Shown here one piece after another: positions 6,276 to 10,169 of a stretch of DNA of 64,000 nt. Numbering within the stretch: the first letter of the stretch is position 1; every line of letters begins with the position of its first letter. Origin of the DNA: Escherichia coli. Its GTDB lineage: Bacteria > Pseudomonadota > Gammaproteobacteria > Enterobacterales > Enterobacteriaceae. The notes beneath the pieces were generated by a model, which saw only the letters and a program-made list of their open reading frames with translations, made no database searches and was not told the origin of the DNA. The stretch lies in NCBI RefSeq assembly GCF_002854065.1, contig NZ_CP024147.1; one strand, given 5' to 3'. The position numbers were made by a program, and so were the translations under genes.

Positions 6276-7037
6276 TCAGTAAGTTGGCAGCATCACCGTG
6301 TTGTCCGTGTTCATACCGGTGTGCCTTTGACAACGGTACTCCTTAGAAACTCTCTTCGGACTGTTGCCGAAATGTTTGCGGAACGCATAAATAAAATAAG
6401 ATGTACTGGCATAACCACATTGTTCGGCAATTTTATTGACTGAACCTTCTACGCGTATCAAATTTTTTGCGTGCTGCATTCTGGCATCTAAAAGAATCTG
6501 TGAGAATGTCGTTTGCTCTTGCTTAAGTTTTTTCTTCAACAGGCTTTCACTGATGTACAGGCAGTCACAAATATCTTTCAGCTTCCATGGGTGCGCCAGC
6601 TTCATGTTGACAATATTTCTCACTTTCCCGGAAACGGATAGCACACCGTTAGTTAATAGTGTAATGAAACCTTTGCATGCGGCAAAAATAGACAGGCAAG
6701 AAAAAAGCAAAAGTTCTGAAAAATTATGATGATTGCGTTCTTCCGAGTTGAGATAAGCAATCATTTCATTAAGCAATCCAGTCGGTACATTAGAAGCACG
6801 TAAAAACTTCGCAGGAACAGGCACCGTCACTGTCTGGATGTTAGTGCATTGTAGATATTTTTTAATGGTATTTTCATTAAATCCGATTTCTTTAAAATGC
6901 CGCTCATAAGGTTCAAAATGCGTACGAACAGCGTTATCTACCATCAGGATCTCGCCGTCAGAGAAGGCGTAATCTTTATCTAAAATGTTAGCGTTGAAGG
7001 CATGATGAATAAATATAACAGAACAAACGAGCGACAT
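6276..7037 (-). CDS. ydeO: AraC-family acid-resistance regulator; last 6 codons and stop supplied by the IS1 terminus
   Basis: 253-aa ORF with C-terminal AraC HTH region; reading frame crosses the IS1 junction at 6297/6298 and ends ...NTVMLPTY inside the IS1 end. Confidence 0.85.
   Translation of the reverse strand: MSLVCSVIFIHHAFNANILDKDYAFSDGEILMVDNAVRTHFEPYERHFKEIGFNENTIKKYLQCTNIQTVTVPVPAKFLRASNVPTGLLNEMIAYLNSEERNHHNFSELLLFSCLSIFAACKGFITLLTNGVLSVSGKVRNIVNMKLAHPWKLKDICDCLYISESLLKKKLKQEQTTFSQILLDARMQHAKNLIRVEGSVNKIAEQCGYASTSYFIYAFRKHFGNSPKRVSKEYRCQRHTGMNTDNTVMLPTY
6298..6306. repeat. 9-bp target-site duplication GTGTTGTCC (right copy) of IS1 copy 1, inside ydeO coding sequence
   Basis: identical to 5521..5529. 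Confidence 0.9.
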
Positions 7038-7111: not shown

Positions 7112-7309
7112 TCAGTCTTGCAAACTATTGATAATGAAATGTGTAAGATCTCTTGCAATGCGACCCATTTCTGAAATGCCCAGCTGATCAATTGCCGAAA
7201 AAATGGCTATCAACGTAAGGGTCAGTAATAAGACAACCACAATTACAAACATGATTTCTTTATAGTTGTCTCTTTGCGTGATTTTGTTTTTCACTGTGGT
7301 CGAATGCAT
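7112..7309 (-). CDS. safA: small membrane protein connecting EvgS/EvgA to PhoQ/PhoP
   Basis: 65-aa ORF with one hydrophobic helix FVIVVVLLLTLTLIAIFSAI; immediately upstream of ydeO as in the safA-ydeO operon. Confidence 0.8.
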   Translation of the reverse strand: MHSTTVKNKITQRDNYKEIMFVIVVVLLLTLTLIAIFSAIDQLGISEMGRIARDLTHFIINSLQD

Positions 7310-7420
7310 TTCAAATATGTTTATTTAGCGGATAACGTTAAAAATCGTTAATCAGTATGCTTAATATAACAGGCTGGAGAAAAGAGGAAATAGGACTGGT
7401 GCTTCAGTACTGAGCGGAGT

Positions 7421-7438
7421 TTCTTACAGCTGTAGGCA
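7421..7438. promoter_or_regulatory. EvgA-box-like 18-bp motif TTCTTACAGCTGTAGGCA upstream of safA
   Basis: near-dyad motif, nearly identical to the one at 10080..10097 upstream of ydeP; resembles recalled EvgA box TTCPyTACA...TGTAPuGAA. Confidence 0.5.
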
Positions 7439-7556
7439 GAAGTTTATATCTTATAGTATGTAGTTTAATTTAATCCATGTGAGCAAATTGCGCGATAATA
7501 GTCAATGAGGAATTCTTCTGCTGTGCGGATGACAGCAGAAGAAATGAGAAGAGGCA

Positions 7557-9836
7557 TTAATTTGATGGTTCTAATTCAACCGGAATACTTTTATAGCCAG
7601 GAATGCCACTTAATGGATCGTGGTTATCAAGTGTTAGCATGTGATTCGATTCTGGAAAATAGGTCACCAGTGAGCGGTCAGCCATAGGGTAAATGACCAC
7701 TTTTAATCTATCCATGCGGCGTGAGCTGCGCTTACCGTCTGGCGTAAGCGCAATAAGATTAACTCTTTCGCCGTTTTTTACACGGCAAATTTTAGCTTGT
7801 TTAGCACTCATAAAGACCACATCTCGTTGACCGAATACCCCTCGATAACGATCATCCATACCATAAATCGTCGTGTTGTACTGATCGTGACTGCGTACTG
7901 TCGCCATGACCAGCTTACTGTTAAACGCTGAAGAGGGATCTTCTAACAGCCCTTTGCTGGTAATGAAATTAGCCTTACCTGACGGCGTCATCCAGCGCCT
8001 TTCAGCAGCTGCATTTATCAGGTGAAAACCTCCAGGATGTCGGATGCGCTGGTTATAATCGGCGAACTCTGGCAGCACAGCTTCAATGTCATTGCGAATG
8101 CGATCATAATCTTCCACCAGATACTCCCAGGCTACCACGCTCTGGGGTAGTGCTGCCTGCGCGATTCCCGCGACCACTGCACACTCTGATTTCAGCATTA
8201 CATCGGCGGGTTTTAACACGCCACGCGAGGCATGAATCATCGACATTGAATCCTCAACGGTTACCGCCTGCGCACCGCTTTTTTGCATGTCAATCTCGCT
8301 ACGTCCCAGAACCGGCAGAATATAGCTATGCCGTGCGGTCAGCAGATGAGAGCGGTTAAGCTTAGTGGCTACGTGTACCGCCAGATCTAATTGCGTTAAC
8401 GGTACAGCGCTCGCTTCCCGATCTGGCATTGCCAGTGCAAAGTTGCCCCCCATGCAGATCAATGCTCGAGCCTGCCCTGAACATATTGCTTGCATGCTGG
8501 CAATTGCAGCATGTCCAGGTGCTTGAGGTGGTGTGAAGCCATAGCGCTCACCCAGGCGAGCCAGAAACTCTGCAGACGGTTTCTCGGTGATACCGACGGT
8601 TCGGTCGCCCTGTACATTAGAGTGGCCACGTAGTGGGCAGATACCCGCACCAGGCTTGCCAATGTTACCTTTCATCAACAGCAGATTGACCAGTTGCTGT
8701 ACATTCTGGGTACCATGTTCGTGCTGAGTGATCCCCATTCCGTAACAGATAATGGTGCGTTCGGCAGCGGCATATGCATCAGCCAGTTCGGCGATTTGTG
8801 TCTGACTTAGTCCAGAAATACGTTCGATATCTTTCCACTCGGAATTGAGAACGTCACGGCGTAGCTCGTCAAAGCCGACGGTATGCGTTTGAATAAATTC
8901 GTCATCCAGCAATGAGGGCCGACCTGCGGCACTTGCAGCATCATCGCGCTCAATTAACAGGCGCATCATCCCCTTGAGCAACGCCATATCGCCACCAATG
9001 CGCACGTTGTAGTAGGCACTGGCCAACTGAGTCTCAGAGTTCGTCAGCATTTCAAACGGGTTTTGCGGTGCGGTAAATCGCTCCAGGCCACGTTCCTGTA
9101 GAGGATTGATGGCGATCATTTTCGCTCCCCGTTTCACTAAAGCGCGCAACGAAGTCAGCATGCGAGGGTGGTTTGTACCAGGGTTATGCCCAATGCAAAT
9201 GACTAAATCGCACTTCTCAAAGTCTTCCAGCAACACGGTCCCTTTACCTACACCGATACTCGCTGCCAAACCCACGCTTGTCGGTTCATGGCACATGTTG
9301 GAGCAGTCGGGAAAGTTATTGCTCCCGTATTCACGGGCAAAAAGCTGATAAAGAAAGGCAGCTTCATTGGAAGTGCGGCCCGAAGTATAGAATTCAACCT
9401 GATTGGGATCACTATAGCTTTGAAGGCGTGCGCCAATTTCATTGAAAGCTTGTTGCCAGCTTAATGGCTTGTAACAGTCGCTGACGGCATCATATTTCAA
9501 AGGCTGAGTGAGTCGCCCCGCAGCCTCAAGCTCGTGGTCTCCCCAGGTAAGTAATGATTGAACCGTATTCTCAGCAAAGAAAGAGGCGTTTACCTGCTTA
9601 TCCGTGACTTCCCAGGCGATTGCTTTTGCGCCGTTTTCACAAATGTCGAATGACGCACTGTGCTTAGGATCTGGCCATGCACAACCCGGACAGTCAAAGC
9701 CCTCTGGCTTATTCATGTCAAACATGGCAATAACATCCTGGCGTATATCCATCTGCTTACGTACTGCATTCGCTACGGATTTAACAGCACCCCAACCACC
9801 GGCAGCACCCTGGTAGGATTCAATTTTTTTCTTCAT
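7557..9836 (-). CDS. ydeP: molybdopterin-oxidoreductase-like acid-resistance protein
   Basis: 759-aa ORF; N-terminal Cys cluster CPGCAWPDP and formate-dehydrogenase-like composition. Confidence 0.85.
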
Positions 9837-10079
9837 CTACTTATCCTGTGTGGAAATGAATTATTAGGATTTGTAATAGCGATGATGCACAGTACATACA
9901 AAGGGATTATCGCCAACATGGATATATAAGAGTAGGGGACTACTCTCTTTCTATTTTTAATCTATTATCGTTAAACCATAGATTAAATACGATAAGGTAA
10001 GCATCATCTCTCATAGTGTTTAAATTAACATATTTTTCAATATAAAAAATAAGACTCTGGCTTCAATTGTGCGCGGATT

Positions 10080-10097
10080 TTCTTACAGGTGTAGGAT
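10080..10097. promoter_or_regulatory. EvgA-box-like 18-bp motif TTCTTACAGGTGTAGGAT upstream of ydeP
   Basis: shares TTCTTACAG-N-TGTAGG with the safA upstream motif; embedded between GCGCGGAT/ATCCGCGC inverted repeats. Confidence 0.5.
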
Positions 10098-10169
10098 AAT
10101 AGCTTTCACAAAATAATTATCCGCGCAATTTTCGTGAATGGAGCGCATAGACTAAGGTCAAAATCACAA

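Follow-up and report, generated by a model that had tools for sequence, protein, structure and literature searches.

The EvgA operator of the ydeP promoter in Escherichia coli and a probably incidental inverted repeat around it

The stretch of DNA analysed here, 64,000 nucleotides long and referred to as the window, carries an EvgA box in the intergenic segment between ydeQ and the regulated gene ydeP, with safA and ydeO further along on the same strand (Table 1). The ydeQ-ydeP intergenic segment (9837-10169, 333 bp) is 100% identical to that of E. coli O157:H7 strain TR01, and it has matches in 5327 of 5426 complete E. coli genomes, almost all of them at an identity of at least 90%. The fimbrial operon upstream of ydeQ is degraded in comparison with strain TR01 (window 11648-15129): ydeR is followed only by a 363-aa N-terminal usher fragment, a 237-aa chaperone and then a HipA-like kinase, and ydeS and most of the usher are absent. 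At the other end of the locus, the ydeP terminator hairpin (7513-7543, minus strand) reads TTCTTCTGCTGT-CATCCGC-ACAGCAGAAGAA. In L003, a diverged Escherichia lineage with 88% nucleotide identity in ydeP, the stems of this terminator (5290-5325 of L003) are identical to those of the window and the loop is ACGGATG, nearly the reverse complement, a difference that looks like an inversion of the hairpin loop. The ydeP 5' untranslated region further holds a conserved stem-loop (9929-9946, minus strand; 7-bp stem and 4-nt loop, AGAGTAGtcccCTACTCT), located at about +69 to +86 from the inferred start site and showing a terminator-like score on the antisense strand.

Table 1. Genes and sequence features of the ydeQ-ydeP-safA-ydeO region, in window coordinates.
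Feature	Position	Strand	Basis or relation
ydeO	6276-7037	minus	RefSeq annotation of O157:H7 strain TR01 mapped onto the window
safA	7112-7309	minus	RefSeq annotation of O157:H7 strain TR01 mapped onto the window
ydeP coding sequence, 759 aa, regulated gene	7557-9836	minus	ORF list and RefSeq annotation of TR01
ydeQ, FimH-like fimbrial adhesin, upstream gene	10170-11084	minus	ORF list and RefSeq annotation of TR01
EvgA box, ydeP promoter	10080-10097	minus	1 mismatch to TTCYTACANNTGTARGAA
EvgA box, safA-ydeO promoter	7421-7438	minus	pattern match; sole other consensus-grade site in the window, internal comparison
Module between EvgA box and core promoter, 33 nt	10047-10079	minus	in register with safA promoter 7388-7420
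Extended -10 element TGtTAATTT (candidate)	10022-10030	minus	in register with safA TGtTATATT at 7363-7371
Sigma-70-like promoter TTGAAG-N16-TATATT (candidate)	10039-10066	minus	promoter scan
Promoter-proximal arm of outer repeat, ATCCGCGCA on ydeP sense strand	10070-10078		1 nt downstream of box
Distal arm of outer repeat, TGCGCGGAT on ydeP sense strand	10119-10127		21 nt upstream of box
Distal conserved block TCCATTCACGAAAATTGCGCGGATAAT, includes distal arm	10116-10142	minus	conservation with L003 and L069
Inner inverted repeat, competing, GGATAAT 10116-10122 / ATTATCC 10094-10100, 15 nt apart	10094-10122		repeat search

The EvgA box of the E. coli EvgAS regulon is an 18-bp inverted repeat, TTCYTACA-N2-TGTARGAA, and such boxes precede ydeP, safA-ydeO, emrKY/evgAS, yfdX, frc, yegR and gadE; fusions to the ydeP promoter are a standard reporter of EvgS activity. 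The consensus used here is reportedly that of Masuda and Church 2002, and we regard it as validated since, in the 20 kb around evgAS of K-12, the same pattern matched exclusively the emrK/evgA spacer, the frc upstream region and two sites upstream of yfdX. When up to three mismatches were allowed, the pattern occurred in exactly two places in the 64 kb of the window, each with a single mismatch (two matches at one mismatch or fewer, vs 0.00 expected from 100 shuffles), and both stand upstream of EvgA-activated genes, namely ydeP and safA. The ydeP box, TTCTTACAGGTGTAGGAT, is located 244-261 nt upstream of the ydeP start codon (ATG) and reads ATCCTACA-CC-TGTAAGAA on the ydeP sense strand, with the promoter-proximal half-site being a perfect match to the consensus. 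It obtained the top position weight matrix (PWM) dimer score of the window, a ranking that is partly circular as the box itself was fed into the PWM, and it was kept in all Escherichia copies examined. Its O157-type allele ends in ...GGAT and the K-12 allele in ...GGCT; apart from this allelic difference, 10080-10097 and the EvgA box of the EvgAS regulon are the same site. At the safA promoter, a weaker EvgA-like site was observed at 7448-7466 (minus strand), reading AAACTACA-tac-TATAAGAT with a 3-nt spacer; its centre lies 27.5 nt upstream of the main safA box, and its PWM score was 10, compared to a 99.9th percentile of 0.15 in the window.

Published work places ydeP under direct EvgA control (PMC7174508, PMC11210196), outside the regulation by GadE, GadW, GadX and RpoS (PMC7174508), and binding of EvgA to its promoter is described at the level of the promoter fragment (review, PMC8147483). 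All directly EvgA-regulated genes have the site (PMC4283999), EvgA binds inverted repeats in targets of the evgAS region (PMC3720670), and the safA-ydeO promoter is likewise bound by EvgA (PMC9496106). A text search of the literature with the motif strings returned unrelated papers only. Matching the consensus and being followed by a gene that published work places under direct EvgA control, the 18-mer at 10080-10097 is, as judged from its sequence, the non-random and already described EvgA operator of ydeP. Thus, the preliminary description, which had spoken of an EvgA-box-like motif upstream of ydeP at this position, was right about its position and identity, but the site was an established one.

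We then considered the DNA between the box and the core promoter, which is shared to a large extent with the safA promoter. An ungapped local alignment of box and module found 38 of 49 positions identical between ydeP and safA (score 48 vs 19.3 +/- 2.2 in shuffles, z of about 13), while only 15 of 60 positions matched in the 60 nt upstream of the two boxes. The 33-nt module includes the proximal arm of the outer repeat, TTGAAG and AGTCTT; it is kept at both promoters in the L003 lineage, and AGTCYT occurs at a common offset in the ydeP, safA and K-12 emrK promoters. The distance from the box to the extended -10 element is equal at ydeP and safA in the same ungapped alignment, this element is retained as TGnTAAnTT in divergent lineages, and -10-like hexamers could be read at an equal offset, within 1 nt, in the sequences of the emrK, frc and yfdX promoters. 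Taken from box to extended -10, ydeP 10022-10097 and safA 7363-7438 are colinear without gaps over ~75 nt, which suggests either a duplicated promoter or a shared constraint.

From the extended -10 element we infer a transcription start at the A at position 10014, which would place the centre of the box at -74.5 and the two arms of the outer repeat near -60 and -109. An earlier study worked with a ydeP leader whose -178 end coincides with this position, and reported binding of CsrA to the leader as negative (PMC11210196). The promoter scan yielded a second candidate, TTGAAG-N16-TATATT; if used, transcription would start at ~10032 and the box would be centred at ~-56.5. A genomic SELEX study predicts the ydeP promoter at this hexamer pair and flags it for H-NS (PMC3946193). 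Reading of the safA promoter sequence revealed no in-register counterpart of TTGAAG-N16-TATATT, and since it lacks this counterpart, the extended -10 promoter appears to be the better candidate for EvgA-dependent transcription.

The outer repeat consists of a perfect 9-nt pair, TGCGCGGAT at 10070-10078 and ATCCGCGCA at 10119-10127, with 40 nt between the arms. It had been presented as an 8-bp inverted repeat with the box embedded in it; a repeat does exist, but it extends to nine nucleotides and the box sits in it asymmetrically. The left arm, GCGCGGAT, lies at 10071-10078 as claimed, whereas the sequence at 10129-10136, given for the right arm, reads TTTTCGTG, and the actual partner, ATCCGCGC, is found 10 nt away at 10119-10126. 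As the box is 1 nt from the proximal arm and 21 nt from the distal one, the dyad of the repeat (10098.5) and that of the box (10088.5) are 10 bp apart. Within the window, the arm 9-mer occurs at the two arms only. A competing inner repeat shares its GGAT with the distal arm and its ATCC with the box; it displayed no covariation, and K-12-type alleles disrupt its pairing.

When the 45-nt flanks of the box were shuffled, 0.96% of the shuffles produced a perfect 9-mer inverted repeat around it. For the 333-bp intergenic region, 11% of shuffles held some 9-mer inverted repeat with arms 3-60 nt apart, and across the window as a whole 46 such pairs were counted, vs ~18 expected. Considering these figures, and that the feature was chosen after the fact, the bracketing repeat is locally unusual but not compelling. 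No bracket of at least 8 nt was found at the five other EvgA boxes inspected (safA, emrK/evgA, frc and the two of yfdX), where the best was 6-7 nt or absent.

Natural variation offered a further view of the repeat. Homologues of YdeP turned up in a species-level genome scan in Edwardsiella (85% amino acid identity), Yersinia rohdei (67%) and others, all of them without an upstream EvgA box, and the useful comparison was therefore restricted to Escherichia. The 85% protein identity in Edwardsiella anguillarum, E. piscicida and E. hoshinae is far above that of the other enterobacteria found, a distribution that suggests that ydeP was transferred horizontally and that the EvgA-dependent promoter is specific to Escherichia. 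The sample was made up of 14 E. coli alleles from complete genomes, L003 and 90 metagenomic copies, and yielded 104 Escherichia sequences in 22 haplotypes. The pattern used to retrieve the metagenomic copies fixed TGTAAGAAAAT and part of the downstream module, leaving 7 of the 9 bases of the proximal arm and the entire distal side free to vary.

Both arms proved nearly invariant in E. coli. The proximal arm was invariant in all copies of E. coli sensu stricto and reads ATTCGCGCA in L003, and the distal arm showed three independent one-sided variants (TGTGCGGAT, TACGCGGAT and TGCGCGGAA), with no matching change opposite. Four one-sided changes were thus seen in the arms. Two of them break the pairing, namely G2 to A in the distal arm of L069 and T9 to A in the distal arm of two sequences; the other two, C3 to T in the distal arm of six sequences (a wobble in the sense RNA only) and C3 to T in the proximal arm of L003, are C-to-T changes that keep a G-U pair in the sense-strand RNA. 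None of the nine pairs had changed on both sides in the 21-haplotype alignment, a count equal to that in shuffles and obtained at low diversity and hence low power. In L003, moreover, 12 nt are inserted between box and distal arm, which extends the spacer to 52 nt, compared to 40 nt in E. coli. At the safA promoter, 7 of the 9 positions of the proximal arm are identical in register (CTCCGCTCA), and there is no partner arm.

Two E. coli strains carry insertion sequences at this locus. In strain BKQ37E (~1550-1620 of its sequence, corresponding to window ~10096-10100), an IS5-like element has entered at TTAG, with an overlap of two bases at the beginning of a K-12-type box (AGCCTACA...); box, proximal arm and core promoter are intact, while the distal arm is displaced from the neighbourhood and ydeQ is lost. 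IS5 insertions can activate H-NS-silenced promoters. In strain Z503, an IS1 element located 89 bp upstream of the ydeP start codon has removed the entire EvgA-dependent promoter together with ydeQ.

Taken together, we favour the reading that the ydeP promoter consists of a known operator for phosphorylated EvgA with a core promoter downstream, and that the outer repeat is not a working unit, the complementarity of its arms being most likely a coincidence; we assign this joint reading a probability of roughly 0.7. The repeat is real and unique to the ydeP promoter among the six EvgA boxes, but it is probably incidental and unlikely to function as a pair. The proximal arm would owe its conservation to its membership in the module that leads from the box to the core promoter, not to pairing with the distal arm. 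The proposal that the outer repeat forms a secondary structure or a second, paired protein-binding site found no support, given the zero compensatory changes, a bracket unique to this promoter, a variable spacer, a folding z of only about -2, and the lack of a terminator or an Rfam match.

A different possibility is that the arms do serve the promoter, as separate cis-elements and not as partners. BvgA of Bordetella is the closest characterised homologue of EvgA. The BvgA-activated promoters Pfha, Pptx and Pfim3 share three traits with that of ydeP: a primary inverted-repeat site of high affinity lies upstream, the -35 region is poor, and the DNA linking this site to the core promoter is conserved. 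At Pfha, additional BvgA dimers follow at 22-bp intervals along one face of the helix until the poor -35 is reached (PMC7250471). By analogy, the module at 10047-10079 (with ATCCGCGCA, TGAAG and AGTCYT) might be a region of secondary contacts for phosphorylated EvgA or the polymerase alpha subunit in the ydeP, safA and, partly, emrK promoters, and the block at 10116-10142 might exert control of its own, for instance in silencing by H-NS or in relieving it. A scan with a PWM derived from 12 EvgA half-sites detected no recognisable secondary site at a distance of 21-22 bp from the box on its downstream side, be it at ydeP, safA, emrK, frc or yfdX. In the region of the proximal arm, too, the PWM gave no match; weak sites, however, are not predictable from sequence, as the authors of the BvgA work state for their own (PMC7250471). 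The conserved 33-nt module is compatible with secondary sites of the BvgA type but does not demonstrate them, so that secondary EvgA binding in the module stays a conjecture by analogy, and we consider this whole arrangement doubtful.

Rather less probable, in our estimate, is that the arms or the distal block bind a second protein that modulates activation by EvgA, whether H-NS, acting here as a silencer, or a dimeric regulator that bridges the arms. In its favour, the ydeP promoter fragment is a preferred target of H-NS in vitro (PMC2984483) and the ydeQ-ydeP spacer was flagged for H-NS in genomic SELEX (PMC3946193). The distal block is also conserved in the diverged lineages, with the conservation with L003 and L069 beginning at TCCATT and the sequence upstream of it diverging, and it has a reversed near-copy upstream of safA (7474-7499, plus strand; score 28 vs 15.9 +/- 2.5, p of ~0.002). 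The insertion in L003, furthermore, shifts the spacing of the arms by roughly one helical turn. Against this, inverted half-sites 49 bp apart would be atypical, the natural variants alter one arm only, and nothing comparable is present at other EvgA promoters. The near-copy upstream of safA is not conserved in L003 and was set aside as support. Regarding candidate proteins, GadE, GadW, GadX and RpoS do not regulate the ydeP promoter according to the study already cited (PMC7174508), and YdeO was rejected, its box being ATTTCA and its ChIP-chip having given seven operons, with neither ydeP nor safA in the text of the paper (PMC4222967). DicC raises ydeP expression, and no binding to ydeP is described for it. 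An RcsB-like reading of TAAGAAAATCCGC and an H-NS nucleation motif in CGGATAATT were both poor fits, as assessed by eye only. The distal block as the site of a second protein is thus possible but unsupported. The distal block and its near-copy share the form TCCAT..AAATTGCGCG(G)ATAAT over ~27 nt and precede the two EvgA boxes of the window in opposite orientations.

The repeat could also act at the level of RNA: in read-through transcripts of ydeQ, a stem of 9 bp closing a loop of 40 nt might stabilise the 3' end of the fimbrial mRNA or shield ydeP from the read-through. Since ydeQ lies upstream on the same strand, such read-through would be the only source of any RNA containing the repeat, and no intrinsic terminator was detected between the two genes. 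Folding of the 78-nt sense RNA predicts the stem as its minimum-energy feature (-16.3 kcal/mol, z = -2.0), and two of the four arm variants, being C-to-U in the RNA, keep a wobble pair on the sense strand. However, folding within a 146-nt context gives a z of only -0.84, the antisense strand is predicted to fold just as well, as holds for any inverted repeat, and the inner repeat competes for the same GGAU. The G-to-A and U-to-A variants break pairs with no compensatory change, and a search of Rfam gave no match at E <= 1. Nor does the repeat have the form of a terminator. Like intrinsic terminators and REP or BIME units, it is a GC-rich, intergenic inverted repeat downstream of a gene (ydeQ), but a scan for intrinsic terminators, defined by a GC-rich stem and a loop of 3-8 nt followed by a T/U run, detected none on the ydeQ/ydeP strand: the loop is, at 40 nt, far beyond the terminator range, and the stem is followed by CACAATTGAAGCC, with no T tract. 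The sole detection of the scan was the hairpin of the 5' untranslated region, scoring on the antisense strand. In contrast to REP and BIME units, the repeat bears no resemblance to REP sequences and is single-copy in each genome; a 98-nt query found a median of 1 and a maximum of 2 places per genome in 5322 genomes, ruling out a repeated palindromic or mobile element (REP, BIME or MITE). We therefore regard a role of the repeat in RNA as improbable.

Least credible is a DNA cruciform extruded under negative supercoiling that would change the presentation of the EvgA box, for although the arms are perfect, 9 bp long and GC-rich (single-strand DNA fold of -9.9 kcal/mol, z = -1.85), cruciforms need short spacers and longer arms, a spacer of 40 nt (52 nt in L003) makes extrusion very unfavourable, one-sided arm variants persist naturally, and the box would end up in a single-stranded loop, destroying the duplex site that EvgA needs.

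Returning to the favoured reading, that of a known operator within an incidental repeat, the promoter would work as follows. The site at 10080-10097 would be the primary operator for phosphorylated EvgA, a response regulator of the NarL family that binds as a dimer to an inverted pair of TTCYTACA half-sites. From there, as we infer, EvgA would bring in RNA polymerase or stabilise it on a weak core promoter located downstream; the extended -10 element TGtTAATTT is the most likely one, with transcription starting near position 10014. The proximal arm would belong to the conserved 33-nt spacer module that is common to ydeP and safA, which probably serves the interface of EvgA and the polymerase or secondary EvgA contacts, and the distal arm would belong to a separate upstream block.

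The significance of these findings beyond annotation is small, as the EvgAS acid-resistance cascade is known from textbooks to enter ydeP through this site. For users of ydeP reporters, they indicate a conserved promoter reaching from ~10142 to the extended -10 element, colinear with the safA promoter over ~75 nt and offering two candidate core promoters. If the module is indeed a region of secondary EvgA contacts, the promoter model established for BvgA would be extended to E. coli.
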